Positions 21,469 through 45,315 are shown, numbered from the stretch's first letter. The stretch is 64,000 nt of DNA from Alphaproteobacteria bacterium (GCA_018971835.1 JAGWZW010000006.1:7749-71748), one strand, 5' to 3'. Translations and numbers: made by a program. Notes: generated from the letters alone by a model not told the origin.

Positions 21469-21500
21469 GGTTGGGCCCTCGGGAGGCGCAATGCGGCCAC

Positions 21501-22391: not shown

Positions 22392-22401
22392 CCCGTCCCT
22401 C

Positions 22402-24036: not shown

Positions 24037-24356
24037 TATGGAGCGCCCTCGCAGAATACCTCGTCGATCTGCATGGTGGGCATCGCCTTCGTGAACAACG
24101 GCACCTCGTCGAGCAGTTCCTGCGTACGGTTGGCCATAGCCTTCTCATAGGCCTGCCAATCAGCGATCCAGATGCTGATCACCGCAACGTAAGTCGGCGC
24201 GCCGCCATCTTGCGAGGACTGGCCCTTGCGCACCTCGATCTTGTGCAGAGACTTGCCGAGAATGTCCTGGATCAAGGGCACATGCCGGCGCTTGTAGAAG
24301 TCGAAGTCGAAGCCCTCATTGTCCTTCATCGGATAGAGCACGGTGATACATTTCAT
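24036..24356 (-). CDS. EthD-domain protein
   Basis: 106 aa. EthD-like pattern (ITVLYPMKDNEGFDFDFYKRRHVPLI). Its stop codon abuts the start codon of the GMC gene (1 nt shared). Confidence 0.7.
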   Translation of the reverse strand: MKCITVLYPMKDNEGFDFDFYKRRHVPLIQDILGKSLHKIEVRKGQSSQDGGAPTYVAVISIWIADWQAYEKAMANRTQELLDEVPLFTKAMPTMQIDEVFCEGAP

Positions 24357-24398
24357 GGCAGTAGCCTTTCACAGATTCCGGATTGCCGTGACGACATT

Positions 24399-27357: not shown

Positions 27358-29130
27358 ATGACCGAAGCCCGGTTGACGCTGGCCGAGGTGATGCGGCAGG
27401 CGGGACGTTCGCAGATCACGGCCGATCAAAACTGGGATAGCGGCGCCTCCCCCACCTTCCGGGAGATGTTCGACAACCTGAAATTTTCGCCCGAGGACGG
27501 GCGAATCTGGTTTGGCGATCAGCGGATGATGCTGCTTCATGCGGCAGCATATGGCGCGCTTCGTCAGGAACTCATCGCCGCGCTGGGCCTGGAAAAAACC
27601 CGCGAATTGCTCATGCGGATGGGGCACGTCGCCGGCACCAGGGATGCCACGATCGTTCGCGACCGCTGGTCACACGGCACGAGCGGCGATGTGGCCAGCA
27701 TTTTTTTCAATGCCGGCGCGCGGCTTCATGGCTTGGAAGGACTCGTCAAGGTGCTTCCCGGCCAGTTCACCCTGAATGCGGACCGGGAGAGTTATCGGGG
27801 AACTTTCACCTGGCACGGCTCGGTGGAAGCGGCCGAACATGTCGCCGCATTCGGTCTTAGCACGATTCCGGTTTGCTGGATGCTGGTCGGCTATGCGAAC
27901 GGCTACGCCAGTTCCATCAACGGAACAGAGATGCTCTACAAGGAGATCGAATGCACAGCAATGGGAGCACCCTGTTGCCGCTGCGTCGGGCGTCCGGCTA
28001 AGGATTGGGCAGAAGGTGAACCCCAGGTGCGGTTCTACTCTGTGGCGGAACTGGTGCCGCGGGGCAGCCGGCAGACCGACAATGCCTCGAACACCGCATC
28101 CGGGCCCGGCCCGCAGATGGTCATCGGCGTTTCTCCAGCATTCCGCGCCGCGCGCGACAAGCTCGAAAAGGTGGCCGGAATTGACGCCACGGTCCTGCTC
28201 GAAGGCGAGTCCGGCGTCGGCAAGGAGATGTTCACGGCAACGTTGCACGCCATCAGCCCGCGCGCGAACGGCCCATTCATCGCCGTCAATTGTGCGGCCA
28301 TCCCGGATACGCTGATCGAATCGGAGCTGTTCGGCGTCGAACGCGGCGCATTCACGGGCGCGACGGTTTCCCGCCCCGGCCGCTTCGAGCGCGCCTCCGG
28401 CGGCACGCTATTTCTCGATGAGATCTCGTCCATGAGCCTGATCGCGCAGGGGAAGTTGCTGCGCGCGGTGCAGGAAGGAGTCATCGAGCGGGTTGGCGGC
28501 GTCCAGCCGATCAAGGTCGACGTACGCCTGGTGGCAGCGACGAATGTGGATTTGCGCAAGGAAGTCGATGCCGGCCGGTTCCGTCAGGATCTGTATTTCC
28601 GGCTGAACGTATTCCCCATCACCTTACCACCGCTACGCGAACGGCGCGACGACATCCCGCTGCTCATGCAGCATTTTCTGGAGCGGTACAGCGCCAAATA
28701 CGGCCGCAAGGTCGACATGTTCACCACCCAGGCGGTCAACGCACTGCTGCGCTACGATTACCCCGGAAATGTCCGAGAATTGCAGAACATCATAGAGCGC
28801 GCCGTCATTTCTGCCGGTACGGATGGCGTGGTCGACGTCCAGCACCTGTTTCCCCCCGGAAAAATCCCACCGGATATTCCCTATCTTATGGATTCAAGCG
28901 GCGTGTTCCGGGAAAGCGAAAACTCCGGCGAGCCGGCAGGAAACGGGAACGGAGCAAACGGCCTGATCGCACGGGCACTGGACGCGGGATTATCCATTCG
29001 CCAGTGGGACGAGCAGCTTTGCCGCGAGGCGCTGGCCCGCGCCCGAGGCAACGTCGCCAAGGCGGCCCGGATGCTGGGATTGTCGCGTGCGCAGTTGAAC
29101 TACCGCCTGCGCCAGTTGGACGATACGTGA
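27358..29130 (+). CDS. Sigma-54-dependent transcriptional activator, XylR/DmpR (NtrC) family with XylR_N + V4R sensor
   Basis: N-terminal XylR_N-like region (RMMLLHAAAYGALRQELI...). V4R-like Cys block (CWMLVGYANGYAS...ECTAMGAPCCRC). AAA+ core (GESGVGKEMF, ESELFGVERGAFTGA). C-terminal HTH (NVAKAARMLGLSRAQLNYRL). Confidence 0.9.
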   Translation: MTEARLTLAEVMRQAGRSQITADQNWDSGASPTFREMFDNLKFSPEDGRIWFGDQRMMLLHAAAYGALRQELIAALGLEKTRELLMRMGHVAGTRDATIVRDRWSHGTSGDVASIFFNAGARLHGLEGLVKVLPGQFTLNADRESYRGTFTWHGSVEAAEHVAAFGLSTIPVCWMLVGYANGYASSINGTEMLYKEIECTAMGAPCCRCVGRPAKDWAEGEPQVRFYSVAELVPRGSRQTDNASNTASGPGPQMVIGVSPAFRAARDKLEKVAGIDATVLLEGESGVGKEMFTATLHAISPRANGPFIAVNCAAIPDTLIESELFGVERGAFTGATVSRPGRFERASGGTLFLDEISSMSLIAQGKLLRAVQEGVIERVGGVQPIKVDVRLVAATNVDLRKEVDAGRFRQDLYFRLNVFPITLPPLRERRDDIPLLMQHFLERYSAKYGRKVDMFTTQAVNALLRYDYPGNVRELQNIIERAVISAGTDGVVDVQHLFPPGKIPPDIPYLMDSSGVFRESENSGEPAGNGNGANGLIARALDAGLSIRQWDEQLCREALARARGNVAKAARMLGLSRAQLNYRLRQLDDT

Positions 29131-29143: not shown

Positions 29144-30568
29144 TTATTCTACCGCGGCGAACCGACGGCACAGCGGCGCGGGATCGACGATGGCCCGGCC
29201 GAGCTGGGCACTGCGGGCGTCTTCGCCGAAGGCCAGCAGCATGAGTTGCGTGGCGTGAACGATTGGTGTGGGCGTTTCGAAGTCCAGCCGCCGCTGCCGC
29301 GCATCAAGGTTGATGTGGCACATCGGGCACATGGTGGCGACGATATCCGCGCCGCAGGCACGCGCGTTCGTCAGCACCTTCTTCGTCATCTTCAGCGACA
29401 CCTCGGTCTTAGAGATACCGAGCGAGCCGCCGCAGCAATCGGTCTTGCCGGACCATGCGACCGGCTCCGCGCCCAGTGCCCGCACCAGATAATCCATCTT
29501 CATCGGATATTCGGGATGTTCGGCGCCGGTAATGCGGCTTGGGCGCGTAATCAGGCAGCCATAATAGCAGGCGACCTTCAGCCCGGCGAGCGGCCGCCTG
29601 ACGCGCGCGGCGACCTTGTCCGGGCCGGCCTGTTCCATCAGCGTGTCGAGCAGGTGCTGCACGCGCACCGTGCCGCCATAGCTATGGCCGATCTTTCCAG
29701 CGATCCTCGCCGCCTTGGCCGCATCCTCGCGGACAGCATGCTCGACCGTCTTGAGCCGGCCGAAGCAAGCGCTGCACGGCGTGGTCAGCGTACCGATCTG
29801 CATGCGCTCGACGGCGGCGATGCTGCGCATCGGCATCAGTGTGGCCTGTTCCGCGTCGGTCGCGTGCGCCGGGCTGGAGCCGCAGCAGGTCCAGCCTTCC
29901 GGCTCGACCAGATCGAGATCGAGCGCGCGGGCCACCATGCGAGCGGTGCGGTCATAATCCGAAGCGCTGCCCTCCGAAGCGCAGCCTGGAAAATAGCCGA
30001 TCTTTTTGCCGGCATCGGCCACCGCGACCACGGCTGTGGGCATGCGAACAAATTTCGGCAACAGCTTGAGCCGGCCGCGGCGAAACAATTGCCACCCCAA
30101 CCCGGCATCATGGACCGGCTTGCCGCGCACGAGGTTGAAGGCCAGCATCAGCAGCGCCTCGGGCAGCCGCCCGAAGATGGCGACCAGCCGCATGAACAGC
30201 GCGTTGAAGGCAGGGATCTCGGGAACCGCCGGCGCGATGCCGCGCTTCTTCGCCTCGATGCGCAGCATATCCATCACACCGGTCACGTCGATGCCGCGCG
30301 GGCAGCGCGTGGCGCAGGTGTAGCAGGAGGAACAGAGCCAGATCGTCTTGCTCGCCAGCACGTTTTCGTCGTTCAACTGCAAAGCGCGCATCACCTGGTT
30401 CGGCGTCAGGTCGAACTGGTCGGCGAGCGGGCAGCCCGCGGTGCACTTCACGCACTGCCAGCAGCGGTTGATATTCTCGCCTATCCGTGCCCTGACCGTA
30501 TCGGCGAACGTCGCCGCACCCGATTGCGCACCGCGCGCGAAGGCCGCCGTCTGTTCCATCGCGTTCAT
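29144..30568 (-). CDS. hdrCB: Heterodisulfide reductase HdrC-HdrB fusion-like protein (2x[4Fe-4S] + two CCG domains)
   Basis: HdrC-like ferredoxin motifs (CWQCVKCTAGCP, CSSCYTCATRCP), followed by two CCG-type Cys-rich domains (YFPGCASEG...WTCCGSS; ACYYGCLITRP...KTDCCGGS). ATG 30568 lies 5 nt after the metF stop; the track start at 30808 is inside metF. Confidence 0.8.
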   Translation of the reverse strand: MNAMEQTAAFARGAQSGAATFADTVRARIGENINRCWQCVKCTAGCPLADQFDLTPNQVMRALQLNDENVLASKTIWLCSSCYTCATRCPRGIDVTGVMDMLRIEAKKRGIAPAVPEIPAFNALFMRLVAIFGRLPEALLMLAFNLVRGKPVHDAGLGWQLFRRGRLKLLPKFVRMPTAVVAVADAGKKIGYFPGCASEGSASDYDRTARMVARALDLDLVEPEGWTCCGSSPAHATDAEQATLMPMRSIAAVERMQIGTLTTPCSACFGRLKTVEHAVREDAAKAARIAGKIGHSYGGTVRVQHLLDTLMEQAGPDKVAARVRRPLAGLKVACYYGCLITRPSRITGAEHPEYPMKMDYLVRALGAEPVAWSGKTDCCGGSLGISKTEVSLKMTKKVLTNARACGADIVATMCPMCHINLDARQRRLDFETPTPIVHATQLMLLAFGEDARSAQLGRAIVDPAPLCRRFAAVE

Positions 30569-30572
30569 CGGC

Positions 30573-31568
30573 TCACCCTCGCGGCTGCTGGCGCAATCCG
30601 GCTGCCTTGACGATATCGGGCACCGCCTCTTCCCATTCGATCGCCATGACATGCACGCCGGCCACGCCCTCGATCTCACGGATCTGCTGGATGGTTTCCA
30701 CGCAGATGCGTTTGCCCTCATTGCGCCAGGCCTGGGCGCGGGCCTGCTTGTCGTCGATGCCCTTGACTGCATCCTCGAGGCGCACGTCGATGGTTTCGGG
30801 CACGGCAAGGCCCGGCACGTTCTGGCGCAGGTGGCGCACCATGCCCGGGCTCTTTACCGGGCCGACACCGGCCAGGATCGCGGTCTTCTCGTGGACACCG
30901 AGATCGACGACTTTCTTCATAAACGCGCGGAAGCGCGGCACGTCGTAGATCAACTGCGTCTGGATGAAATCGGCGCCGGCCACGACCTTTTTGCGCAGGC
31001 GATAGGGGCGGATGGCGGCCGGGTCGGCAAACGGATTCTCGGCCGCGCCGATGAAAAGCCGCGGCCCGCCGCCGGGAATATCCTTGCCGTTCTGGTAGTG
31101 GCCTTCGTCGCGCATGCCGCGCACCATCGCCACGAGCTGGATCGAATCGACGTCGTGCACGTTCTTGGCGCCGGGGTGATCGCCCTTGGACTGGTGATCG
31201 CCAGAAAGACACAGCAGATTATGCACGCCAAGCGCGGCGGCGCCCAAAAGGTCGCTCTGCATTGCCAGCCGGTTGCGGTCGCGGCAGGTCATCTGCACGA
31301 TCGGCTCCAGCCCCTCGGCGATCATCAGCAGGCCGGTGGCGATGCTGCTCATGCGCACCACGGCGGCCTGGTTGTCGGTGACGTTCGCGGCATCGACCCA
31401 GCCCTTGAGCAGCTGCGCCTTCCGGCGCACGGCGTCGGCATCGCAGCCGCGCGGCGGGCCCAGCTCGGCGGTGACGGCGAACTGCCCCGCGGACAGCACG
31501 CGCTCCAGATTGCCGCCGGATTTAGGCGTAGTTTCGGGTGGAATGGCGGCTGCGTTTGCCAAGCTCAT
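30573..31568 (-). CDS. metF: Methylenetetrahydrofolate reductase MetF (small, acetogen/Hdr-associated type)
   Basis: MTHFR fold motifs (FAVTAELGPPRG, NVTDNQAAVVRMSS, QMTCRDRNR, LCLSGDH). Confidence 0.85.
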   Translation of the reverse strand: MSLANAAAIPPETTPKSGGNLERVLSAGQFAVTAELGPPRGCDADAVRRKAQLLKGWVDAANVTDNQAAVVRMSSIATGLLMIAEGLEPIVQMTCRDRNRLAMQSDLLGAAALGVHNLLCLSGDHQSKGDHPGAKNVHDVDSIQLVAMVRGMRDEGHYQNGKDIPGGGPRLFIGAAENPFADPAAIRPYRLRKKVVAGADFIQTQLIYDVPRFRAFMKKVVDLGVHEKTAILAGVGPVKSPGMVRHLRQNVPGLAVPETIDVRLEDAVKGIDDKQARAQAWRNEGKRICVETIQQIREIEGVAGVHVMAIEWEEAVPDIVKAAGLRQQPRG

Positions 31569-31570
31569 CC

Positions 31571-32263
31571 TCAGCCCTCCTTCGTTTCTTCACGCGGCGC
31601 GCGCAGGTCTTCGCGCACCATGCGGCGCAGGCCGCCGTCGCGGCTGGTGGACCAGTCCTTCGCCGGCTCGATTTCCATCAGCGCCTCGGTCATGCCGAGC
31701 GCCTCGGCCCGCTCCCAGATCATGTGCCAGGCGCAGGGCACCGTCGCGTCCACTTCGCAGACGCCGTTCTGCGAACCGCCGCAGGGGCCGTTGAACAACT
31801 GCTTGGCGCAGCGGCTGACCGGGCAGATGCCGCCGGTCTTGTCGAGCACGCAATTGCCGCAACCCTGGCAGCGCTCCTCCCACACGCCTTGCTCGGTGGG
31901 CAGACCCATGAACAGCGTGTTCAGCGCCGGCAGCACGCGCGTCCCGGGGAAGCGCTTGGCCAGCGTCTGCACGCCCACGCCGCAGCCCAGCGACAGCACG
32001 GCGTCGTAATTCTTCACCTGATCGGCCAAGGGATCGAGATATTCCCATTCGCACTGGCGCTGCACCATGCCCTCGCCGACGGCGAGCGGCGTGCCCTCGA
32101 TGCGCCGCTTCATGCGCAGGCTGGCCGCCAGCGCGGCCACTTCCTTGCCGCTGCCCGAGAAACAGACCGTGACGCAGGTGCCGCAGCCCACGGCCAGCAC
32201 CCGGTCGTAGTTCTCCAGCATTCTGGCGACGGCCTCGAGAGGTTTCTTCTCCGCGACGATCAT
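31571..32263 (-). CDS. metV: MetV-type iron-sulfur subunit (MTHFR C-terminal domain protein)
   Basis: Cys-rich (GCGTCVTVC, CQGCGNCV, CPVSRCAKQLFNGPCGG) with the NGPCGG block typical of MTHFR_C/MetV. ATGA overlap with mvhD. Confidence 0.8.
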   Translation of the reverse strand: MIVAEKKPLEAVARMLENYDRVLAVGCGTCVTVCFSGSGKEVAALAASLRMKRRIEGTPLAVGEGMVQRQCEWEYLDPLADQVKNYDAVLSLGCGVGVQTLAKRFPGTRVLPALNTLFMGLPTEQGVWEERCQGCGNCVLDKTGGICPVSRCAKQLFNGPCGGSQNGVCEVDATVPCAWHMIWERAEALGMTEALMEIEPAKDWSTSRDGGLRRMVREDLRAPREETKEG

Positions 32264-32739
32264 GCGGGATTTCCTTCTTCCTGAGCTTGGCCGCGTAGCG
32301 GGCTGGGGCCGAGGGCGCGCACGGTTTCGACATGCTCGCTGGCCAGTTCGGCGAATTGCACGCCCATCGCGGCGGAGATGTTGATCATGCGCGCCCGCGC
32401 GGGCTCCAGGCCGATCTCCTTCAGCGCCCCGTGGATGTAATCGAGGCGCTGGCGCGCATAGAGATTGCCCCTGATATAATGACAGCTGCCAGGCAGGCAG
32501 CCGGCGATCAACACGCCGTCGGCGCCGTCCTCGAAGGCGTGCAAGATGTTCACGATGTCGATGCGGCCGGTGCAGGGCAGCTCGACGATCTTGATGGCGC
32601 TGGGATAGGGCTGGCGCTTGCCGCCGGCCAGATCGGCCGCGGCATAGGCGCAATGCCGGCAGCAGAACGCCACCACTTCGGGATGAAAGCCGCCTGCGGT
32701 CGCTGCCGGTGATGCGATGACCGTGTCAGGGTTTGTCAT
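32260..32739 (-). CDS. mvhD: MvhD-like (methyl-viologen-reducing hydrogenase delta subunit) [2Fe-2S] protein
   Basis: FCCRHCAYAAADLAG ... VELPCTGRID ... GADGVLIAGCLPGSCHY pattern of MvhD/FlpD. ATGA overlap with hdrL. Confidence 0.85.
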   Translation of the reverse strand: MTNPDTVIASPAATAGGFHPEVVAFCCRHCAYAAADLAGGKRQPYPSAIKIVELPCTGRIDIVNILHAFEDGADGVLIAGCLPGSCHYIRGNLYARQRLDYIHGALKEIGLEPARARMINISAAMGVQFAELASEHVETVRALGPSPLRGQAQEEGNPA

Positions 32740-35700
32740 GGCGCATGGCTCTCATGGAAACGCTCAAACAGGGCATCGACCTTCGCCCGCACCTGCAGAT
32801 CGGTGTAGTGCCTGAGCTGGATGGCGTTGGCAGGACACTGGGCGGCGCACAGCCCGCAGCCCTGGCATAGCGCCGGTTCGATATAGGCCGCGCCGATGAT
32901 ACCGCCGACCCCGCAGAGCTCGGGGTTGATACGCGGCGCCGAATAGGCGCAGCTGCGCACGCAGGTCAGGCAACCCACGCACAGCGCCGGATCGACTTCG
33001 GCGATGCTGCCGCCGACCGTGATGCTGTCATGCGAGATCAGCGCACCGGCGCGCGCCGCCGCCGCGCGGGCATGCACCAGCGTCTCCTCCAGCGATTTGG
33101 GATAATGCGCGGTACCCGCCATGTAGAGGCCTTCAGAGAGGAAATCCACCGGCCGCAGCTTGACATGCGCTTCGAGGAAAAAGCCGTCCGCGTCGATCGG
33201 TACCTTGAGGCAGGAGGACAGCTCGCGCGCCGCGGGCGGCGGCACCAGCGGCGTGGAAAGCACAAGATAATCCGCCGTCAGCGCCAGCGCCTTTCCGAGG
33301 ATTTCCTCGAACACGCGTACGACAGGCCGACCGTTCTCACTGGAAACTTCCGGCACATGCGCCTCGTCGTAATGGACGAAGCGAACGCCGGCCTCCAGCG
33401 CCTTGTCGTAGAGCCGTTCCTTGAAACCGTAGGTGCGGATATCCTTGTAGATCACCGTCACTTCGGACGAAGGCTGGCGCGCCTTGAGGATGAGCGCGTT
33501 CTTGAGCGCGGTGGTGCAGCAGATGCGCGCGCAATAACGCTCTGCCGGGCCGACGCACTGGATCATCACCACGCGGCCCGGCACCTCGCCCGCCGCCAGT
33601 TTTTCTTCGAACTGGCTCTGCGTGAGGATGCGCGGATCGCGGCCGTAGCCGTATTCCTCGCCGCGGTATTCGACGCCACCGGTCGCCAGCACCGCCGCGC
33701 CGTGCTGCACCACCGCGCGCTCGACCGCGCCGTCGGGCGAGGTCAGCGTTGAGGTGAAATTGCCCATGAAGCCACTGGTTTTGGCCAACACGGTTTGCCG
33801 ATGCACGGTGATGCGCGGCTCGGCCTCGACCTCCGCCACCAGTTCAGCCAACAGAGCCTGCGGCCTGACCCACGCGCCGCTGCCGGCACGGCCGAGCGGA
33901 CTGGCCACGCCGATATCATCCAGCCCGAAATGCTGCTGGCGCAGTGCGCCGCCAAGCTCGGCCTGCTTCTCAACCAGATGCACGGCGAAGCCCTGCCGCG
34001 CCAGCGACAGCGCCACCGTCATGCCCGCCGGCCCGCCGCCCACCACCAGCGCGCTGCGGTTCATCGCCATCTCGCCGGTCTTCAACGGCTTCAGTTCGGC
34101 CGCCCGCGCCGCCGACATGCGCACCAGATCCTTCGCCTTGGCGGTGGCTTCGCCCCGGTCCTTGGAATGCACCCAGGAGCACTGGTTGCGGATATTGGCC
34201 ATATCGACCAGGAAAGGATTGAACCCCGCGCTGCGCGCACAGCCTCGGAACAGCCCCTCATGCGTCAGCGGCGTGCAACTTGCGACAATCAGGCGGTTGG
34301 CGCCCAGCTCGCGCGCAGTGTCGGCAATATGCGCGACACTATCGCGCGAGCAGGCATAGAGGCTTTCCTCGGCATGAATGACGCCCGGAAGCGTCTTGGC
34401 GTATTCGGCCACCTCATCGCAGTTGAGAAACCCCGAGATATTGGTGCCGCAATGGCAGACGAAGACGGCGGTGCGCGCTTCCTCGCTGCTGACATCGCGC
34501 TCCGGTGGGTATTCCTGTTTGCGCGTCAGCGTGCCGCGCGCGCTGGAAAGCAATTCGCCGATGCTGGCCGCCGCGCCGCTGGCATCCACCAGCGATTCGG
34601 GAATGTCCTTGGGCTCGCGGAACGGGCCGACAGCGAAGACACCGCGCCGGCTGGTTTGCAGGGGATCGAACTGCACAGTGCGGCAGAAACCGTGATCGTC
34701 CAGCTCGACGCCGAGGCGGCGGCCGAGATCGCGCACTTCGGGCGCGATCTCCATGCCGACGGAGAGCACCACCATGTCGAACTCTTCCTCGGTCACTTCG
34801 CGCGCCCCGGCCCGATCCCAATAACGCACCAGCAGATTCCTCGTTGCCGGGTCTTCGCGCAGGGCTGAGATGCGGCAGCGCGTATAGCCGATACCGTATT
34901 TCTCCCGCGCCGAGCGGTAATAGGCTTCATAGCCCTTGGAGAAGGCGCGCGTATCCATCATGAACACGCGGATCTTCGTATCGGGCTCGTGCTCGATGGC
35001 CTGCACCGCTTCCTTGGCGGCATACATGCAGCACACGGCCGAGCAATAGTCATGGGACTGGTCGCGCGAACCCACGCATTGCAGAAAGGCGATGCGCTTG
35101 GGCGTGCGCCTGTCGGACGGGCGCAGAACATGGCCGTTGTTCGGGCCTGAGGCGCTCAGCAGCCGCTCGAACTCCAGCGAGGTGACGACGTTGGGATAAC
35201 GGCCGTAGCCGTATTCTTCGGAGAGTTGCGCACGATAGGTCTGATAGCCGGGTGCCAGCACCACCGCGCCCACATTTATGTCGCGCGTCTCCTCCACCAT
35301 CGCATGATCGATGGCGCCGATGCCGCAGGCATAGACGCACTGGTTGCATTCGCTGCAGATGCCGCAGGAGAGGCAGCGCCCAGCTTCGGCCTTGGCCTGC
35401 TCCTCCGAATAGCCCAGCTCGACCTCGGCAAAATCGCCGCAGCGGGTGGCGACGGTCATCTCCGGCATCGGCACGCGCGGACTGCGAATGATCTGGCACT
35501 GCTGCACCTTGCGGTCCAGGTCTTCCTGCCGCATCTCGGCGACGGGCAGCACCGGCTTCTCTGCGCCGTGCGCTGCGCCTTTGCGCAGATAACGATGAAT
35601 GGCTTCGGCGCTTTTGTGACCGCCGGCGATGGCCTCGATCGCGAAGGCGGTGCCGGTAGTGCAATCGCCCGCGGCGAAGACACCGGGCCGGCCCGTAGCC

Positions 35701-37313
35701 ATCGTGGCAGTGTCGATTTCGAGCGTCTTGTCGCGCGAGATGTGTACCTTGGAGTCCGCCGGCGCCAGGCCGAGCCCCACCCGCTGGCCGACGGAGAAGA
35801 TCAGCACCTCGCCGGGGATCACGAATTTCGAATCCGGTACCGTCACCGCGGTGCGGCGGCCGTTCGCATCGGGTTCGAAGCGGACGCGCTCGCATTCGAG
35901 GCCTGCCACGCGGCCTGCACCATCGTCGATCACGCGCAGGAAATTGAGGCCGATCTCGATCACGATGCCTTCCTCACGCGCCGCCTTCTGCTCATGCGCG
36001 CTGGCCGGCATGGAGCCGGAACTGCCGCGCACCGCCATGTGCACCTTGTGCGCGCCCAGGCGCAGCGCGCTGCGCGCCACGTCCACGGCGACGTCGCCGC
36101 CGCCCACCACCACCACATCCTTGCCTTCAATCAGAGCCCGCGGATCGGCGCTCGGCGCATCACCCGCCGCGCGCATCATCTCCGCCAGGCGCACATCGCG
36201 CAGGAAATGCGTGTTGATGATGACGCCGTTCAAATCGTTGCCCGGAATCGGCAGGCGGATGCCTTCCTGGGCCCCCACAGCAATCAGCACGGCCTTGAAG
36301 CCCTGTGCGAAGAGTTCGTCGAGATTGTCCACGCGCGTGTTGAGCCGCAGATCGACGCCGAGATCGAGAATGTCCTGGATTTCACGCTCGATGATGCCCG
36401 CTGGAAGCCGGTGCGCCGGGACACCAAAGCGCAGCATGCCGCCCGGCGCCGGTAGCGCCTCGAACACCGTTACGCCGTAACCGTGGCGCAGCAGATCCTG
36501 TGCAGCCGTAAGGCCGCAAGGGCCCGCGCCGATGATGGCGATGCGTTCTTCGTGACGGCGCTCGGCGGGCGCTGGCGCCACACGCGGCCGCGCATATTCG
36601 CGATCGACCACAAAACGCTTCAGGCCGCGGATGTTCAGCGGCTCGTCCACCTTGCCGCGGCTGCAGGCGCTTTCGCAGCGATGATCGCAGATGCGCCCGC
36701 AGATGCCGGGAAACGGATTGTCTTCCTGAATGGTGCGCAGCGCATCGGCAGTGCGCCCCTCGCGAACCAGCGCGATGTAGCCTTGCGCCCGCTGGCCGGC
36801 CGGGCAAGCATCGCGGCACGGCGCCACACCGCGCTTCTCGATGGCATAGGCGTCCGGTGTTGCCTGCGGATAGAGACGATAGGCGGCGCGCTGCAGGCGC
36901 AGGCCTTCGTCGAACAGGCTGGGCAGCGATTCCGGGCAGACCTCCGCACATTTGCCGCAGCCGTTGCAGATATCAGTGGCGATAAAGCGGGGCTTGATGT
37001 GCAGCGTGGCCTTGAAGGCGCCGGCCTCGCCCTTCAGCGCAGCTACTTCGCTGTCTGTCAGGATTTCGATGTTGGGATGCGACGCCACATCGACCAGCCG
37101 CGGCGAGATGGTGCACATAGCACAGTCGTTGGTGGGGAAGGTCTTGTCGAGTTTCGCCATATGTCCGCCGAGGGCGGAACGCTTCTCCACCAGATAGACC
37201 TTGTAGCCGCTTTCAGCGAGGTCGAGCGACGACTGGATGCCGGCGATGCCGCCGCCAACCACCATCACCGCGCCGGTCTGTTCCTGCGCAGGGCCGTTCG
37301 CTGCTGCAACCAT
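32736..37313 (-). CDS. hdrL: Giant HdrA-like flavoprotein (HdrL-type): HdrA module with inserted GltD/NfnB-like NAD(P)H domain plus a second HdrA-like module
   Basis: 1525 aa. HdrA motifs (VVGGGIAGIQ, KTFPTNDCAMC). GltD/NfnB-like insert (FPGICGRICDHRCESACSR, IAIIGAGPCGLTAA, VVVVGGGDVAVD). Several 4Fe-4S ferredoxin motifs. Second FAD module (ALVVGGGPAGMT) and a C-terminal 2x[4Fe-4S] (CVGCLTCVRSC, CQGCGLCAAQCP). Confidence 0.8.
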   Translation of the reverse strand: MVAAANGPAQEQTGAVMVVGGGIAGIQSSLDLAESGYKVYLVEKRSALGGHMAKLDKTFPTNDCAMCTISPRLVDVASHPNIEILTDSEVAALKGEAGAFKATLHIKPRFIATDICNGCGKCAEVCPESLPSLFDEGLRLQRAAYRLYPQATPDAYAIEKRGVAPCRDACPAGQRAQGYIALVREGRTADALRTIQEDNPFPGICGRICDHRCESACSRGKVDEPLNIRGLKRFVVDREYARPRVAPAPAERRHEERIAIIGAGPCGLTAAQDLLRHGYGVTVFEALPAPGGMLRFGVPAHRLPAGIIEREIQDILDLGVDLRLNTRVDNLDELFAQGFKAVLIAVGAQEGIRLPIPGNDLNGVIINTHFLRDVRLAEMMRAAGDAPSADPRALIEGKDVVVVGGGDVAVDVARSALRLGAHKVHMAVRGSSGSMPASAHEQKAAREEGIVIEIGLNFLRVIDDGAGRVAGLECERVRFEPDANGRRTAVTVPDSKFVIPGEVLIFSVGQRVGLGLAPADSKVHISRDKTLEIDTATMATGRPGVFAAGDCTTGTAFAIEAIAGGHKSAEAIHRYLRKGAAHGAEKPVLPVAEMRQEDLDRKVQQCQIIRSPRVPMPEMTVATRCGDFAEVELGYSEEQAKAEAGRCLSCGICSECNQCVYACGIGAIDHAMVEETRDINVGAVVLAPGYQTYRAQLSEEYGYGRYPNVVTSLEFERLLSASGPNNGHVLRPSDRRTPKRIAFLQCVGSRDQSHDYCSAVCCMYAAKEAVQAIEHEPDTKIRVFMMDTRAFSKGYEAYYRSAREKYGIGYTRCRISALREDPATRNLLVRYWDRAGAREVTEEEFDMVVLSVGMEIAPEVRDLGRRLGVELDDHGFCRTVQFDPLQTSRRGVFAVGPFREPKDIPESLVDASGAAASIGELLSSARGTLTRKQEYPPERDVSSEEARTAVFVCHCGTNISGFLNCDEVAEYAKTLPGVIHAEESLYACSRDSVAHIADTARELGANRLIVASCTPLTHEGLFRGCARSAGFNPFLVDMANIRNQCSWVHSKDRGEATAKAKDLVRMSAARAAELKPLKTGEMAMNRSALVVGGGPAGMTVALSLARQGFAVHLVEKQAELGGALRQQHFGLDDIGVASPLGRAGSGAWVRPQALLAELVAEVEAEPRITVHRQTVLAKTSGFMGNFTSTLTSPDGAVERAVVQHGAAVLATGGVEYRGEEYGYGRDPRILTQSQFEEKLAAGEVPGRVVMIQCVGPAERYCARICCTTALKNALILKARQPSSEVTVIYKDIRTYGFKERLYDKALEAGVRFVHYDEAHVPEVSSENGRPVVRVFEEILGKALALTADYLVLSTPLVPPPAARELSSCLKVPIDADGFFLEAHVKLRPVDFLSEGLYMAGTAHYPKSLEETLVHARAAAARAGALISHDSITVGGSIAEVDPALCVGCLTCVRSCAYSAPRINPELCGVGGIIGAAYIEPALCQGCGLCAAQCPANAIQLRHYTDLQVRAKVDALFERFHESHAP

Positions 37314-37582
37314 TCAGAGAAACCTCGAAACTGCTAAACCGAAAATGGCTGACACGACATTTTTTGCGTTGGCGTTGGAATGAGCCTCGACGTCGTTGCG
37401 TGGCGCCGCGCCGGTTCGACACAGAATAACAGAGACCCTGATAATGACTATAGCAGCGCACGGCGTCACCGCTTGCGGAACAAGCGGTTGCGACAATTTG
37501 GATTCTCTTACGGGAGTCGCTCAGACGGCCGATCCGGCGTACGGCCTAAGCATTCTGCGACGACGCGCCGCAGCCGATCGCC

Positions 37583-38005
37583 TTAAACGTCCTCGACGAG
37601 TTCGATCAGATTTCCGCTGTCGTCATTTACGAACGCAACGCATGTGCTGGCGATGGTTCTGGGCGCCATCGCGATGACGACGCCACGGGATCGTAAATGT
37701 TCGACCGTCTCCGCAACGCCTTTCACAGCGAAAGCGACGTGCTTGACGCCGTGCGTACGCAGATCCTCGTCGGGAACACGGCGCCCTTCCGGCAGGGGCG
37801 CCGCGCCGGGTAACTCAAACAGTTCGATTCGAAACGTATCGTGAATGAGGAACGCGACCTTGGCGCCGAGATGCGGCAGCACCGCGCGACTTTCAAGCGT
37901 GAAGGCCAGCTTGTCGCAGTACCAGGCGACCGCACGCTCCAGATCGGGCACGCTGAACGCGCAGTGGTGCGGCGTCAAGCGGATTTGCGGCGGCGAGAGG
38001 GTCAT
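37583..38005 (-). CDS. VOC/glyoxalase-family protein
   Basis: 140 aa. Glyoxalase-like pattern (HHCAFSVPDLERAVAWY ... HVAFAV ... FVNDDSGNLIELVE). ATGA overlap with the MFS stop; the track start at 38224 lies inside the MFS gene. Confidence 0.75.
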   Translation of the reverse strand: MTLSPPQIRLTPHHCAFSVPDLERAVAWYCDKLAFTLESRAVLPHLGAKVAFLIHDTFRIELFELPGAAPLPEGRRVPDEDLRTHGVKHVAFAVKGVAETVEHLRSRGVVIAMAPRTIASTCVAFVNDDSGNLIELVEDV

Positions 38006-39222
38006 ACCGTCAGGCCCAGGTTCGAACGTGGCGGCGCCATTATGCCCCGCTTCATCGAGGCAAATGCCGCCAGAACGGCAGCCCCCGCGCAGGCGATGCC
38101 GACCGCCACAAAGGCCGGAAAGAGCCCGCCGACACGCCCGGCGACGAGCGTCACCACCAACGGCGTCAGGAATTGGCCGGTGGCGTTGGCACCCTGCCAC
38201 AATCCGGTGCCGCGGCCGCGCCACTCATAGGCAAGGCCCCGCATAGCCCAGGTGAGCAAGGTCGGGAAGCTCATGCCGGCGCCGATCTGATTGAGCGCCG
38301 CCGCAGCGACCAGACCTTCGAAGCCCGGCGCCAATCCCATACCGACAAATCCGGTCGCGAGGATTACCAATTCCACAAACAGCAGCGCGGAGACGGAAAG
38401 GCGGCGCGAAAGCCGCATGAAGACGAAGGAACCGATCGGCACGAAAATGCTGGCTATGGCGGTCAGTGTCCCGATCCGAACCGGATCGGAAACGCCGTGA
38501 TCGCGCAAACCGAACGGCAGCTCGAGCTGCACGACAAAGAACATCGTCGATACGAACAGCGTAATGGCGCAGATTCCCAGCATCTTCCGAAAGGGAAAGC
38601 GCGTGCTCGGCGCCGGACCGGCAGCCTCTTCCGGCTCGCTCTCGGGCTCCGGTTCCCAGGTGAACAGCGCCACCGCGCCCAACAGCAGCGCCGCGCTACC
38701 ATAGAGCACGAAGGGCCCGCGCCAGCCGAAGATCCCGAGCAAGCCGCCCAGGAAGATGAAGCAGACGGCCGAAACGGAGGCAATGGCCGTTTGGTAGGCC
38801 AGCCATTTGTCACGCGCGGCACCCTTGAAGAAATCGCCGATCAGCGTCGTGCTGACGGTCAGGATGAAAGATTCCAGAACGCCGACCACCACGCGCGAGA
38901 TCAGAATGCTGGTCAGCCGATCCAGCGCCAGCGGCGCCACGCCGACGATGGCGTACAGCAGCATCGCGATCAGCAACAGCTTGCGCCGGCCAAAGATATC
39001 CGCGGCGACGCCGGCCAGCGGCAGAAACAGAACCTGAACCATCGCCGGCACCGTCAGGATCATCGGAACCCAATAGCGCGCGCCGGGAACTCCGGCAAAA
39101 TGGTCCTGCAGCATCGGCAGGACGGGCGCCAGCACCACCGTTCCCATAACCGCCAGCGTGCAGGGCAGCAACAGGATGATCGCTTGCAACGGGCCAGCCT
39201 GTTTGCAGGATGTCTTGCTCAC
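38002..39222 (-). CDS. MFS transporter
   Basis: Multiple TM segments. MFS motif (LAGVAADIFGRRKLL). GTG 39222 has a GGGAGGA Shine-Dalgarno 5 nt upstream; the ORF opens at 39249. Confidence 0.8.
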   Translation of the reverse strand: MSKTSCKQAGPLQAIILLLPCTLAVMGTVVLAPVLPMLQDHFAGVPGARYWVPMILTVPAMVQVLFLPLAGVAADIFGRRKLLLIAMLLYAIVGVAPLALDRLTSILISRVVVGVLESFILTVSTTLIGDFFKGAARDKWLAYQTAIASVSAVCFIFLGGLLGIFGWRGPFVLYGSAALLLGAVALFTWEPEPESEPEEAAGPAPSTRFPFRKMLGICAITLFVSTMFFVVQLELPFGLRDHGVSDPVRIGTLTAIASIFVPIGSFVFMRLSRRLSVSALLFVELVILATGFVGMGLAPGFEGLVAAAALNQIGAGMSFPTLLTWAMRGLAYEWRGRGTGLWQGANATGQFLTPLVVTLVAGRVGGLFPAFVAVGIACAGAAVLAAFASMKRGIMAPPRSNLGLTV

Positions 39223-39281
39223 TTTTCCTCCCGCCCGGAAAGGCTTCACCCGGGTCGAGCCGTCACGATAGCATCAAGCAA

Positions 39282-39307
39282 ATGGCCGCGCCCATCGGCG
39301 CGGCCAT
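39282..39307 (-). terminator. Perfect 11-bp stem / 4-nt loop hairpin between the TonB receptor and MFS genes
   Basis: ATGGCCGCGCC-CATC-GGCGCGGCCAT, 36 nt after the receptor stop. The minus-strand tail is TTGCTTGATGC (weak U-tract). May be a partial terminator or an RNA-stability element. Confidence 0.45.
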
Positions 39308-39342
39308 CTTCGTTACGCCGGCAGTATGCTGACCTGCCGCAA

Positions 39343-41751
39343 TCAGAAGTCGGCACTCAGGCGCACGCCGACATAGCGCCTGGCATCGGCCGCCGGTTGC
39401 GACACCACCACATTGTTGCTGCCCCAGGGTGCACCCCAGAAGTCTTCGACATCCGAATAGTATACGTGATCGGTGACGTTGTTCACGAAGACGGTCAGCG
39501 CATAGGTTCCCGACTTGCTGCGCGCCGTCACGCCCAGGTTAAGCAGGCCAAAACCGGGCTGAACGGTGCGCGGGTTCTGGTCCGGCTGCATCTGGGCTTC
39601 GGTCCGATAGGAATAATCGGCCCGCAGCGTCAGATCGAACAGGTCCAGCGGAATGCGCTGTTCGGCGCCGATATTGATCTTGAATTTCGGCGAATTGGGC
39701 ATGGTCTTGCCGTCGACATTTTCGACATAGCTGCCCGTGGTGGCATCCAGATAGCAGACGGATGGCGTCGGGTTTTCAGGATAGCAAGGCTGGGACTTGT
39801 TGTCGGTGAACCAGGCATCGATGTAAGCCGCGTTCACGTTCAGCCGGAGAGTGTCGGTCGCCTGCCAGTCCGCATCCAGTTCCACGCCGCGGGTTTCGAC
39901 GCCACCCGGTATGAGGTTCAGCGTCGGATAGGTGCTGCCCGGAATAACACTGAAGGTCTGGATCTGGAAATTGCTGTACTGCGTGTCGAACAGCGCCAGA
40001 TTCAGGCCGAGGCGGTGATCGAAATAGGTGCCCTTGCTGCCGATTTCAAAGTTGTCGATATCGGTCTGCGGCGCGATGCTGAGCTGGTTTGACGCGTCCG
40101 AGGTGAGATAGAGCGTCGTGTTGTAGACCTTGGGCGCATAGCCACGCGCATAGGTCGCGTAGATCATGGAGTCGCGGTTGACGTGATATTGCAGGCTCGC
40201 GTCGCCGACCAGCGCCGAGGAACTGTTGCTGCCGGAGCTGGTGTGGGGCCCCCAATCGCCGAACGCACCGGGACCGCCAGCGGCAAAGCCGATCTGGTTA
40301 TCCGTATACTTCAGGACGTCATAGTTATAACGCACGCCGCCGATCAGCGAGAAGTCCGGAGCGAAGTTCCACGTCGCGCGGGCGTAGACGTCGTAGGTCG
40401 CCGTGTCCGGTTTCATCCGGTAGTTCACGAGTGCCGGCAGGAAGGCCCGGGCGTAATCCTCGTTGACGACCGAGTCCGAGTAGAACAGGCCGATGAGCCA
40501 ACTGAATGGCTGGTTCGCTGGCGACATCAGCTTCACTTCTTCGGTGAACTGGCGGATGTTTTCCGTCTGCGTTTGGAAGTCATAGAAGGCCGGCGCGGTG
40601 CAATGCGTCAGGTACTGGAAGAAAAACACCGAGCCGCCGGTGAAGCAGGTGTTGTCGAACACCGGCGCCGGTGCCGGCGGACCATAGCCCGCGGGGACGG
40701 TCTGACTTGCCACCACGAACAGATCCTGGGTGTTGTCCTGCCACTCCTGCTGGTAGGCCGTGGTCGAGCTGAGCGTGAGGCCGCCCAGCTGGTAGTTGAT
40801 GATGAGCGACGCGTCGGCATCGTGAATCTTTGCGCCCGAATTCGGCACCGAGCTGTCGTAGGTCAGGTTGGACCAGTTGGGCGTGATACCGGGCAGCATC
40901 ACGCTTGCCGCCAGCGGCGGCGCGCCGAGCAACGCCGCGCCCGGCTGCGCATAGGTATAGACGAAGTTCGCGCCGTGCGAATGGCCGTTCTGAATGTGGG
41001 CCATCAGCGTGATGTCGAGGTTTTCGTTCGGCTGGTAACGCAGCTTTCCGCGCACCCCGTAAGTATCCTGATAGCTCTTGTCGCCGTTCAGCTTGTTGGT
41101 GATCGGATAGATTGTATGGTCGGCGAAGGCCGAAAGGCTGTATTCGAGCTGGTCCGAGATCGGGCCCGCGACAAAACCGTCGACATGCTCGCCGGCGCGG
41201 TCGGTCGCAGTTGCGCTGAAGGACGCTGTGAAGACGTCGGACGGGCCGCGGGTCACGATGTTGATTTCACCGGCTGCCGCAGTGCGCCCGCCGAGCGTGG
41301 CCTGCGGCCCCTTGAGCACTTCGATCTGCTGGATGTCGGCCAGATGATTGCCGGCAAAGGAGTCGGAGGGAACCGGCACGCCGTCCAGCATGATCGCGAC
41401 GCCGGACGCCAGGCCCACTGTGGCCTCGTTGGCGACCGACGAAATGCCGCGCACGCCCAAGGGAACGCGGCCGTTGAAGGAACCGTTGAGTTGGATCGAT
41501 GGCACCAGGTTGTTCAGGTCCGCGATATCGGTGGCGTTCGCCTGGCTGATCTGGCTGGCGCCGACCACCGCAACGGAAACCGGCGCATCCTGCAGACGCT
41601 CCGACCGCTTCTGCGCGGTGATAACCACGGTTTCGATCTGCTCCGCCCCCGTGTCGGCTGCCGGCGCGGGTGATTGTGCGGCTGCACTACTCGCCCACGC
41701 TGCAGCGCCGAGCGCGATAGCTGTTGAAAGCAACAGATGTTTCCTACTCAT
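39343..41751 (-). CDS. TonB-dependent receptor
   Basis: Signal peptide (MSRKHLLLSTAIALGAAAWASSAAAQ), plug (ETVVITAQKRSERLQDAPVSVAVV), barrel ending ...GVRLSADF. ATG 41751 with GGAGAGG Shine-Dalgarno. Confidence 0.9.
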   Translation of the reverse strand: MSRKHLLLSTAIALGAAAWASSAAAQSPAPAADTGAEQIETVVITAQKRSERLQDAPVSVAVVGASQISQANATDIADLNNLVPSIQLNGSFNGRVPLGVRGISSVANEATVGLASGVAIMLDGVPVPSDSFAGNHLADIQQIEVLKGPQATLGGRTAAAGEINIVTRGPSDVFTASFSATATDRAGEHVDGFVAGPISDQLEYSLSAFADHTIYPITNKLNGDKSYQDTYGVRGKLRYQPNENLDITLMAHIQNGHSHGANFVYTYAQPGAALLGAPPLAASVMLPGITPNWSNLTYDSSVPNSGAKIHDADASLIINYQLGGLTLSSTTAYQQEWQDNTQDLFVVASQTVPAGYGPPAPAPVFDNTCFTGGSVFFFQYLTHCTAPAFYDFQTQTENIRQFTEEVKLMSPANQPFSWLIGLFYSDSVVNEDYARAFLPALVNYRMKPDTATYDVYARATWNFAPDFSLIGGVRYNYDVLKYTDNQIGFAAGGPGAFGDWGPHTSSGSNSSSALVGDASLQYHVNRDSMIYATYARGYAPKVYNTTLYLTSDASNQLSIAPQTDIDNFEIGSKGTYFDHRLGLNLALFDTQYSNFQIQTFSVIPGSTYPTLNLIPGGVETRGVELDADWQATDTLRLNVNAAYIDAWFTDNKSQPCYPENPTPSVCYLDATTGSYVENVDGKTMPNSPKFKINIGAEQRIPLDLFDLTLRADYSYRTEAQMQPDQNPRTVQPGFGLLNLGVTARSKSGTYALTVFVNNVTDHVYYSDVEDFWGAPWGSNNVVVSQPAADARRYVGVRLSADF

Positions 41752-42043
41752 AGCACACCTCTCCCCCAAGTCTGTTTTCACTACGCAGTTGACACAGCTT
41801 CACAACACGAACGCCCAAGAGCGGCGCGATTGAAGCAGGCGCCTCATCCGGCATCTGCCCCGCGACTTCTCGGCCTTCATCTCGAAAAACGGGATTTGTA
41901 AGTACCCGGCATTCCTCCTCAGCCCCGGCTCCCGCGGGGCTCTGTGCTGCAGCATATAGCAGATCACGATACGGATGACAAGTTCCGCTATACGGAACTA
42001 AATCCACGTGTGAGGGCGTGACCGCCACATGCCGGCCGAGCCC

Positions 42044-42523
42044 TCAGTGCGGAAGCCCCAGTTCGGTCATTGTGCCGGTTGCGTCGGTTCGGATGAAACT
42101 GTTGTACGCGACGATGATCTTGAAAAATCTGGCATTTTCGATCTCGTACATCACCAGGCCGCGAAAATCGAAGGCATCCCCTTCGCGTACCTGGCCGAAG
42201 AGCGACGCGCCGCTGACGGTTGCGACGAAGTGGGTCCACATATTAACTGCGAGCGTCCGGCTATCGCTGATGAAGCGATTGATATGAATGGTTTCTTCAA
42301 AGAAGGGCCAGATGGCTTCCTCATAATGTCTTCTCATGCCCTGAACGCCGCGCAACTCCAATGTGCCGTTCAGGATGACCGCGTCCCTGGCGAGATAGTC
42401 GTCAAATGCCGTCGCGTCCCTGGCGTTGAAGCGCCGGATATACGCATCAAATCTTTCGCGGCCGAATATATCAGACCCGATATCGGCTGAGCCGCGCCCA
42501 GATTTCCCGGGTTCTGCGTTCAT
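42044..42523 (-). CDS. NTF2/SnoaL-like domain protein
   Basis: SnoaL-like pattern (FDAYIRRFNARDATAFDDYLARDAVILNG...). ATG 42523 has a GGAGAA Shine-Dalgarno 8 nt upstream; the ORF opens at 42580. Confidence 0.6.
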   Translation of the reverse strand: MNAEPGKSGRGSADIGSDIFGRERFDAYIRRFNARDATAFDDYLARDAVILNGTLELRGVQGMRRHYEEAIWPFFEETIHINRFISDSRTLAVNMWTHFVATVSGASLFGQVREGDAFDFRGLVMYEIENARFFKIIVAYNSFIRTDATGTMTELGLPH

Positions 42524-45304: not shown

Positions 45305-45315
45305 GGTGACGAAGC

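Follow-up and report, generated by a model that had tools for sequence, protein, structure and literature searches.

The 64,000-nucleotide stretch of alphaproteobacterial DNA analysed here (GCA_018971835.1, JAGWZW010000006.1:7749-71748), which as a whole we call the window, contains a five-gene operon, hdrL-mvhD-metV-metF-hdrCB, at positions 29144-37313 of the minus strand. On all criteria that can be tested from sequence, this gene set is a type IV methylene-tetrahydrofolate reductase (MTHFR) of the MetVF-HdrCBA-MvhD kind, a class that follows the classification of Oppinger et al. (PMC8760232): a MetF of the matching type, an adjoining MetV, MvhD, an HdrA with an NAD(P)H module and glutamate/lysine (E/K) pairs, and the motifs of HdrB and HdrC are all present. 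We put at roughly 50% the probability that the complex mainly oxidizes methyl-tetrahydrofolate (methyl-THF), with the uphill reduction of NAD(P)+ paid for by a high-potential acceptor that is reached via HdrCB and is most likely the quinone pool. What commits us to the oxidative direction is the combination of a host that makes ubiquinone, a complex that joins an NAD(P)H module to two bifurcation-type flavins and CCG sites that are intact, and relatives in which methyl-THF-producing and rquA-frd genes are neighbours of the operon. The gene set as such is already known; its host range, its recurrent association with corrinoid demethylases and its adjacency to rquA-frd offer an approach to the second partner of these enzymes.

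The operon starts with hdrL (32736-37313), whose product of 1525 amino acids is a Moorella-type HdrA. It is followed by mvhD (32260-32739, 159 amino acids) for an MvhD/FlpD-type [2Fe-2S] electron-transfer subunit, metV (31571-32263, 230 amino acids) for the iron-sulfur subunit of a MetVF-type MTHFR, metF (30573-31568, 331 amino acids) for the acetogen-type catalytic subunit with its flavin and folate site, and hdrCB (29144-30568, 474 amino acids) for a soluble, HdrD-like fusion of HdrC and HdrB. Stop and start codons overlap as ATGA between hdrL and mvhD (32736-32739) and between mvhD and metV (32260-32263), so that mvhD is placed in the same predicted transcription unit; metV and metF are 2 nt and metF and hdrCB 4 nt apart, and a Shine-Dalgarno-like GAGG or GGAGG stands 5' of all five starts. 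All five proteins cover their homologues over the full length, and none of the genes is therefore a pseudogene. A preliminary description of the region had proposed five co-oriented, translationally coupled genes for an HdrA-like protein, an MvhD-like protein, MetV, MetF and an HdrC-HdrB fusion. The positions of the open reading frames (ORFs) and the junction sequences bear out this layout, and Pfam and NCBIfam profiles (PF02219, PF12225, PF02662, PF02754 and the HdrA-type models all match) bear out the identities, including the membership of MetF and MetV in the MTHFR family. Its wording of MetF as small does not fit a protein of 331 residues.

HdrL contains Pyr_redox_2, Fer4_20 and ferredoxin domains (Pfam) and matches HdrA, GltD and NfnB models of Pfam and NCBIfam. 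A first, HdrA-type flavin adenine dinucleotide (FAD) module at residues 15-161 and 653-930 is split by an NfnB/GltD-like NAD(P)H/FAD module at residues 164-650, which is also of the dihydropyrimidine dehydrogenase type and is matched by structures; the NAD(P)H domain that the preliminary description had attributed to the HdrA subunit is located here. The HdrA N-terminal domain (residues 944-1094), a second FAD module (1088-1355) and a C-terminal 2x[4Fe-4S] ferredoxin domain (1356-1517) follow. Piecewise alignment with the methanogen HdrA (5odc_A) resolved four segments in shuffled order: residues 15-161 of HdrL correspond to 145-291 of HdrA, 653-866 to 293-507, 944-1094 to 2-152 and 1356-1517 to 495-651. 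The sHdrA structure 6tjr matches residues 677-918. The bifurcation E/K pair, E356/K409 in 5odc_A, corresponds to E716/K767 of HdrL, and alignment of module 2 to module 1 brings E1236/K1271 into register with this pair and the cluster cysteines Cys1253/1261/1265/1266 into register with Cys746/757/761/762. Both E/K pairs and the cluster cysteines are invariant across 27 HdrL homologues.

The four smaller proteins are equally well delimited. MvhD matches PF02662 over profile positions 1-123 of 123 (E 9e-44) and further matches VhuD/HdrA2 C-terminal models. MetV matches PF12225 (MTHFR_C/DUF5981, E 2e-36) and contains 13 cysteines and the NGPCGG block; by sequence, it found no homologue among solved structures, and searches with the subunits likewise found no solved structure of a MetFV-Hdr complex. 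MetF matches PF02219 over profile positions 2-287 of 287 (E 1e-35) as well as MTHFR structures in the PDB, and its best NCBIfam match is PRK08645, the MTHFR half of the Firmicutes-type bifunctional enzyme (E 3e-57). We considered and rejected an assignment as housekeeping single-subunit MetF of the E. coli/Thermus type: the protein scores 22.6 bits against the E. coli-type PRK09432 (cut-off 382) and 65 bits against TIGR00676 (cut-off 294), both below the equivalog cut-offs, and its gene lies inside an Hdr operon. HdrCB contains PF02754 (CCG) in two stretches and a Fer4_17 2x[4Fe-4S] dicluster domain. Its HdrC part has two CxxCxxCxxxC motifs (residues 36-46 and 79-89) and its HdrB part two complete CCG motifs, C196-X31-CC-X35-CxxC and C338-X39-CC-X34-CxxC, and it matches solved HdrB (E 8e-41) and solved HdrC (E 7e-17). 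The folds are settled by these sequence matches together with those to solved HdrA, NfnB and MTHFR structures.

The set MetF-MetV-MvhD-HdrA-HdrB-HdrC of Moorella thermoacetica goes back to Mock et al. 2014, as recounted in later papers (PMC8760232, PMC9430772); according to these accounts metVF is co-transcribed with hdr and mvhD, and the second redox partner has been open since 2014. Moorella HdrA has three FAD sites, one NAD(P)H site and an E/K pair in both flavin domains (Kremp 2022, PMC9430772). The window encodes the same six modules, among them a giant HdrA with three predicted FAD sites and E/K in both thioredoxin-reductase-like domains, so that the equation with the Moorella complex made in the preliminary description is upheld by domain, structure and motif matches. 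It differs from Moorella in that HdrC and HdrB form a single polypeptide, in gene order (hdrA-mvhD-metV-metF-hdrCB rather than hdrCBA-mvhD-metVF) and in its host, a ubiquinone-making alphaproteobacterium with no Wood-Ljungdahl genes near the operon rather than a strictly anaerobic acetogen. Identity to representatives from Bacillota amounts to 52-59% for MetF and 43-46% for HdrL (tblastn).

At the biochemical level, a type IV MTHFR would be recognized by subunits that form one complex and by half-reactions with NADH and with methylene-THF, but no NADH:methylene-THF activity unless a second partner is supplied. The MetVF-HdrCBA-MvhD complex of Sporomusa ovata resembles the one described here in having a ubiquinone-containing host, and it has been proposed to be membrane-attached and reversible, with methyl oxidation becoming exergonic via ubiquinone and NAD+ (PMC9430772). 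S. ovata differs from the window in its smaller HdrA with two FAD sites and one E/K signature, in its separate HdrC and HdrB and in being an obligate anaerobe on the Wood-Ljungdahl pathway; biochemistry exists for S. ovata, whereas the complex of the window is known from its genes alone. The name HdrL was given by Strittmatter et al. to an "HdrA/glutamate synthase fusion" followed by mvhD in Desulfobacterium autotrophicum HRM2 (PMC2702500). Our protein conforms to that description, being large and soluble, fusing HdrA to GltD and having an NADH site, and its gene has mvhD directly downstream; the order hdrL-mvhD-metV-metF is shared with loci of the Desulfobacterota. These loci, from sulfate reducers or syntrophs, differ in lacking a fused hdrCB after metF and have HdrL identities of 42-47%; furthermore, HdrL of the window contains no selenocysteine, unlike HdrL1 and HdrL3 of D. 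autotrophicum. A 2018 survey of bifurcating enzymes reported such complexes, with 25 homologues, in obligate anaerobes only (Poudel 2018, PMC6085437). Our literature searches found no paper that reports the cluster from Alpha-, Beta- or Gammaproteobacteria, consistent with the earlier statement that no characterized example is known from aerobic Alphaproteobacteria.

We envisage that the products of the five genes assemble into one soluble or membrane-associated iron-sulfur flavoprotein complex. MetF together with MetV would interconvert methyl-THF and methylene-THF, and MvhD and the ferredoxin domains would wire MetVF to HdrL. HdrL would exchange NAD(P)(H) at its NfnB-like module and hold two HdrA-type flavins with the bifurcation signature, and the two non-cubane-cluster CCG sites of the fused HdrCB could serve a third, high-potential redox partner. 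Methyl-THF (E0' ~ -200 mV) would be made by methyl transfer from methylated substrates and then oxidized, with NAD(P)+ reduction driven through flavin-based electron bifurcation by electron flow to quinone, as proposed for S. ovata. The resulting methylene-THF could be processed onward to formate and CO2 or be assimilated, and the complex would be used at low oxygen, during the catabolism of methyl groups. The formation of a complex, the direction of the reaction, the identity of the third partner and expression at low oxygen are what we infer here; the sequence data show the identities of the genes, the domain anatomy, the cofactor motifs, the structure of the operon, its place in the clade and the neighbourhoods in relatives. 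In energetic terms, methyl-THF oxidation by NAD+ is endergonic; with ubiquinone and NAD+ as joint acceptors a deltaG0' of ~ -29 kJ/mol has been given for S. ovata (Kremp et al., PMC9430772), whose membranes showed methyl-THF:AQDS (anthraquinone-2,6-disulfonate) activity.

The oxidation of methyl-THF has a precedent among Alphaproteobacteria. In the aerobic alphaproteobacterium Ruegeria pomeroyi, methyl-H4F (H4F, tetrahydrofolate) derived from MtgBCD is thought to be oxidized by a stand-alone MetF2 (PMC12478193). This system and cmu/metF2 of Methylobacterium extorquens CM4 (PMC3621897) share with the proposed one the alphaproteobacterial host, corrinoid-made methyl-H4F and a dedicated MetF paralogue that oxidizes it. 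Both of these MetF2 enzymes differ from the window in standing alone: MetV, MvhD and Hdr subunits are lacking, as is any machinery for bifurcation.

Support for an oxidative role comes from 13 genomic contexts of the proteobacterial clade, the window included, with HdrL identities of 59-100% to the window. Genes for corrinoid methyltransferases or the oxidation of one-carbon (C1) units (MttB, URO-D, Pterin_bind, RACo, FolD, Fds) lie within 10 kb of the cluster in seven of them. The closest relative (P0002, 89%) has fdsGBACD, encoding an NAD-type formate dehydrogenase, directly upstream and a Pterin_bind gene resembling methyl-THF:corrinoid methyltransferases downstream. In P0003 (80%), genes for GntR, a MetV-MetF fusion, a B12-binding protein, URO-D, RACo, Pterin_bind, an amidohydrolase and FolD precede the cluster on the same strand, and P0013 (76%) has RACo-Pterin_bind-hdrL-mvhD-metV-metF-hdrCB-URO-D on one strand. 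Downstream of the cluster in L016 (65%, labelled Alphaproteobacteria) are genes for a dimethylglycine-dehydrogenase-like DAO-GCV_T protein, an MttB-family methyltransferase, an MtgC-like corrinoid protein and RACo. P0017, P0018 and P0020 (72%) have one URO-D-family gene each, whose products of 415-425 amino acids share 40-47% identity among themselves and weakly resemble MtaA/CmuA. The preliminary description had suggested that the complex could oxidize methyl-THF released by THF-dependent O- or S-demethylases. The oxidative role thus gains indirect support from the neighbours of relatives, whereas the demethylases found there are of the corrinoid MttB/URO-D/Pterin_bind/RACo kind and not of the LigM/DmdA type. 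One metagenome-assembled genome (MAG), GCA_040960095.1, contains two whole five-gene clusters (L091 and L092, both with 76% HdrL identity to the window), of which one is isolated and the other lies within a RACo-Pterin_bind...URO-D operon beside genes for multihaem cytochromes.

A second kind of neighbour bears on the acceptor. In P0017, the genes that come after hdrCB on its strand are rquA for rhodoquinone synthesis (296 bits, cut-off 175) and frdABCD for quinol:fumarate reductase (FrdA 1028 bits, cut-off 854); in P0018, frdABCD alone takes this place. In the coordinates of the loci L095 (18292-22371) and L096 (18248-21561), both with 72% identity, frdABCD comes after the cluster on the same strand, preceded by rquA in L095. 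This adjacency suggests that the complex is linked to a rhodoquinone/fumarate electron sink.

The host also fits a quinone-linked role. Above the NCBIfam cut-offs, the window encodes UbiT (69 bits, cut-off 47), UbiU (510, cut-off 440) and UbiV (368, cut-off 275) of oxygen-independent ubiquinone synthesis in a ubiT-ubiU-ubiV operon (11304-14067, plus strand), a region also found in the MAG GCA_028872025.1. Judged by these genes, the host is able to respire with ubiquinone under anoxia. The preliminary description had called the surroundings of the operon otherwise aerobic-looking; with ubiTUV present and no terminal oxidase encoded in the 64-kb window, this does not hold. Relatives carry rquA-frdABCD and genes for multihaem cytochromes and a Na+-oxaloacetate decarboxylase, and their hosts therefore look like facultative anaerobes. 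The window itself also encodes a dihaem cytochrome c. A context of 24.6 kb is identical in three independent assemblies (contigs of 112, 48 and 12 kb), namely in JAGWKH010000002.1 of the MAG GCA_028865405.1 and in two ENA assemblies. The best named relatives of an RND pump encoded in the window are from MAGs labelled "Alphaproteobacteria bacterium" (77-80% identity), and Parvibaculaceae, the nearest named family, follow at 63%; these named matches of one protein are weak evidence for an uncultured alphaproteobacterial lineage as host.

Several observations weigh against methyl-THF oxidation with a quinone. C1 neighbours are absent from six of the 13 contexts, namely the window, P0008, P0011, P0021, P0122 and L010, and with P0017/P0018 and P0008/P0011 being near-duplicates the number of independent observations is below 13. 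Genes of a corrinoid methyltransferase module adjoin the cluster in six of the 13, P0002 having only Pterin_bind and fds. The window contains no gene for a methyltransferase, a corrinoid protein or RACo, and no folD, fhs, fds or second metF; tblastn of the window with MttB, corrinoid protein, RACo, Pterin_bind, URO-D, FdsA/B, pyrroloquinoline quinone (PQQ) dehydrogenase and a second MTHFR retrieved only metF itself and an MFS paralogue. HdrCB has no clear transmembrane helix by hydropathy (maximum KD19 = 1.65), and a link to quinone would thus need a partner or an amphipathic association. Moreover, the second partner has so far been identified for no type IV MTHFR, and in S. ovata NADH, dihydrolipoate and glutathione had no effect (PMC9430772). 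For the lineage with fused HdrCB as a whole, we tentatively suggest a bifurcating methyl-THF:NAD(P)+/quinone oxidoreductase, with ubiquinone or rhodoquinone as acceptor, that could be the committed entry of corrinoid-dependent methyl catabolism (of quaternary amines or methoxylated aromatics) in facultatively anaerobic non-acetogens.

Alternatively, the complex could be the organism's housekeeping MTHFR and use NAD(P)H, alone or together with a co-substrate, to reduce methylene-THF to methyl-THF for methionine synthesis, which we regard as an unlikely but substantial competitor. The reaction is reversible and the Moorella enzyme runs reductively (PMC9430772, PMC8760232), an only metF plays this methionine-supplying role in many anaerobes, and both the metF content of the window and the six contexts that lack C1-catabolic neighbours would agree with it. 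However, about 2,700 amino acids and three flavins would be costly compared with the MetF of 300 amino acids of other Alphaproteobacteria. A scan of the whole window and the hdrL leader with Rfam revealed no riboswitch, including those for S-adenosylmethionine (SAM), cobalamin and THF, and no other RNA family. Duplications argue in the same direction, since P0003 has a second MetV-MetF in the locus, beside the demethylase system, and one of the two clusters of GCA_040960095.1 lies inside a methyltransferase operon.

A serious alternative to quinone as third partner, although improbable in our estimation, would be a disulfide or persulfide, either on a protein or of low molecular weight (DsrC, lipoate-protein or thiol type). 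It would be reduced at the CCG clusters, like the substrates of methanogen HdrB or bacterial sHdr, and link C1 oxidation to thiol/disulfide or sulfur metabolism. Neither of the CCG motifs for the heterodisulfide-reducing non-cubane clusters is disrupted, structures of HdrB come out as the closest structural relatives, and L092 has a DsrE-like gene 2.5 kb downstream. Against this, dihydrolipoate and glutathione were ineffective in S. ovata (PMC9430772). In the 13 contexts, no dsrC, lbpA or thiol-carrier gene recurs beside the cluster, and CCG proteins also occur in quinone-linked enzymes, as reflected in the matches of HdrCB to SdhE-type proteins (E 4e-44) and GlpC. Hyphomicrobium and other aerobic Proteobacteria possess the sulfur-oxidizing sHdr system (HdrC1B1AHC2B2-LbpA), with a small sHdrA of a single FAD domain and genes for lipoate-binding and sulfur-carrier proteins. 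Like the operon of the window, it places Hdr-like iron-sulfur flavoproteins with CCG domains in non-methanogenic, oxygen-exposed Proteobacteria, but it has no MetFV, MvhD or NfnB module. We rejected membership of the operon in the sHdr group, as its gene content differs and the 10 kb to each side of the cluster contain neither lipoate-binding nor DsrE/TusA genes.

Less probable still is reductive C1 assimilation, in which formate dehydrogenase, Fhs and FolD would feed CO2 or formate into methyl-THF, as in the Wood-Ljungdahl pathway's methyl branch or a reductive glycine-type pathway, and bifurcation would yield low-potential reductant. This is the classical role of type IV MTHFRs in acetogens (PMC6085437, PMC9430772, PMC8760232), and fdsGBACD directly upstream of the cluster in P0002 would suit it. 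On the other hand, no genes for CODH/ACS (CO dehydrogenase/acetyl-CoA synthase), fhs or glycine reductase were seen in the 13 proteobacterial contexts, whose neighbours are methyl-donating rather than CO2-fixing systems. Fds-type NAD-linked formate dehydrogenases of Proteobacteria, moreover, usually serve the oxidation of formate. Finally, although the source is a MAG and one homologue of the RND pump (78%) is labelled Terriglobia, it is scarcely credible that an anaerobe's cluster was mis-assembled or mis-binned into alphaproteobacterial DNA, since the same 24.6-kb context was assembled independently, which rules out a chimera, GC and GC3 (GC content at third codon positions) of the five genes fit their neighbours, and the closest homologues lie in other proteobacterial-looking contexts.

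The comparisons that follow place the operon in a large, as yet undescribed clade found in MAGs of Proteobacteria and Chloroflexota. In the database, homologues number more than 7,500 for HdrL (E<=1e-20) and 1,162 for the fused HdrCB (E<=1e-30), and the named matches among the top relatives are all MAGs. Among the names are Betaproteobacteria from a Rifle aquifer sample (RIFCSPLOWO2), Alphaproteobacteria such as Rhodospirillales, Gammaproteobacteria such as Steroidobacteraceae and Arenicellales, Myxococcales, and Chloroflexota such as Anaerolineae and Caldilineae. Species-representative genomes were further scanned with an HdrL alignment, and the 80 loci considered here are those among the matches listed, to which the statements on loci in this and the next paragraph are confined. 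hdrL, mvhD, metV and metF co-occur in 43 of the 80, all from other organisms, which speaks against a chance arrangement in the window. None of these relatives exceeds 65% HdrL identity and none is a cultured proteobacterial carrier; the two loci not labelled as MAGs both fall into a group with 42-43% identity.

A full-length fused hdrCB directly 3' of metF is characteristic of the group with at least 55% HdrL identity (MAGs of Chloroflexota, Alpha- and Gammaproteobacteria). It follows metF in none of the 29 metVF-bearing loci of the group with 42-51% identity (Desulfobacterota, Bacillota, Nitrospinota and others), with which the window has the order hdrL-mvhD-metV-metF in common. In 12 loci of the latter group (L060, 4975-5847, and 11 others), the place of hdrCB after metF is taken by a second MTHFR paralogue of ~290 amino acids (PF02219, E 4e-26). 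Chloroflexota loci (L011, 8129-11747, and likewise L009, L014, L015, L019, L022, L023, L039 and L085) encode an extra HdrA-like protein of ~1050 amino acids, with two FAD modules and no NfnB insert, and a second MvhD directly 5' of hdrL; these clusters thus encode two HdrA-MvhD pairs.

Neighbour-joining trees of MetF and HdrL are congruent, which implies that the operon evolves as a unit: in each tree, the window falls into a proteobacterial clade whose sister is a clade of Chloroflexota, and the two clades are separate from Bacillota and Desulfobacterota. An HdrL with 80% identity occurs in a MAG labelled Betaproteobacteria by its source, and in a relative with 79% identity (L097) an IS66-family TnpB and a DDE transposase are encoded ~600 bp downstream of the cluster (18666-20672); together, these indicate lateral spread among Proteobacteria. 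A test of composition gave no sign of a recent transfer, as GC (0.65-0.68) and GC3 (0.79-0.90) of the five genes match their neighbours and show no anomaly.

Control of the operon would be expected in the 269 nt 5' of hdrL (37314-37582, minus strand), which presumably hold its promoter and leader. Between the VOC gene upstream and hdrL lies an inverted repeat, ACCGCTTG / CAAGCGGT (37468-37488; perfect over 8 bp, 5-nt loop), with no T-run after it, which could be an operator or a weak terminator. No sigma-70-like promoter matched on the minus strand 5' of hdrL, and no terminator above chance was found inside the operon. No FNR-like box within two mismatches lies upstream of hdrL in the window. 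A search 5' of hdrL in 12 loci gave seven weak matches (one or two mismatches) in five relatives, compared with ~1.7 expected, which is at most suggestive for the relatives; L088 and L091 share a conserved TTGCCACAGATCAA. The gene of a XylR_N/V4R sigma-54 activator (27358-29130, plus strand) converges with hdrCB at a distance of 13 nt, the tail-to-tail arrangement noted in the preliminary description. A functional link to the XylR-regulated operon, in contrast, was not borne out: the sigma-54 -24/-12 pattern occurs 21 times in the window compared with 20.5 expected, and none of these matches lies 5' of hdrL.

The flanking operons look like genes for the uptake and catabolism of plant-derived compounds. 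Divergent from xylR, an operon at 19346-26903 (minus strand) encodes a TonB-dependent receptor, a 106-amino-acid ORF, a GMC oxidoreductase (598 bits against a "choline dehydrogenase" subfamily, cut-off 605), two SDRs and an MFS transporter; this transporter shares 38% identity with the MFS protein encoded directly upstream of hdrL in L090. On the other side, 5' of hdrL and on its strand, the region 37583-44633 encodes a TonB-dependent receptor, an MFS transporter and a VOC/glyoxalase-family protein and, further out, a SnoaL-like protein, a chalcone-isomerase-N-domain protein and a LysR regulator; it resembles a flavonoid or aromatic island. We did not adopt these operons as a source of methoxylated substrates, as no demethylase is present in the window. 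Elsewhere, the window contains a chemotaxis operon (442-8340, plus strand; cheA, cheW, cheR, cheB, cheY-like and cheD) headed by a methyl-accepting chemoreceptor with a protoglobin sensor and likely to be a gas- or redox-taxis system, an archease-RtcB RNA ligase pair (44870-46746, plus strand) and the genes for the CzcA/AcrB-type RND pump, a membrane-fusion protein and a HAMP histidine kinase (51404-57867, minus strand).

Among methylene-THF reductases, those of type IV are understood least, and their second partner and energetic role have been open since 2014. The window holds the complete type IV machinery in a ubiquinone-making alphaproteobacterium, compared with obligate anaerobes only in published surveys, and makes it part of a large unstudied clade in MAGs of Alpha-, Beta- and Gammaproteobacteria and Chloroflexota. 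The recurrence of corrinoid demethylases and, in one lineage, of rquA-frdABCD beside the cluster leads to a hypothesis for both the direction (methyl oxidation) and the partner (quinone). It suggests that B12-dependent demethylation of betaines and methoxylated compounds, usually credited to strict anaerobes, may also take place in respiring Proteobacteria at low oxygen. If bifurcation to quinone is true, the second partner of type IV MTHFRs would be named, and "anaerobe-type" methylotrophy would extend to respiring Proteobacteria of suboxic soils, aquifers and oceans.

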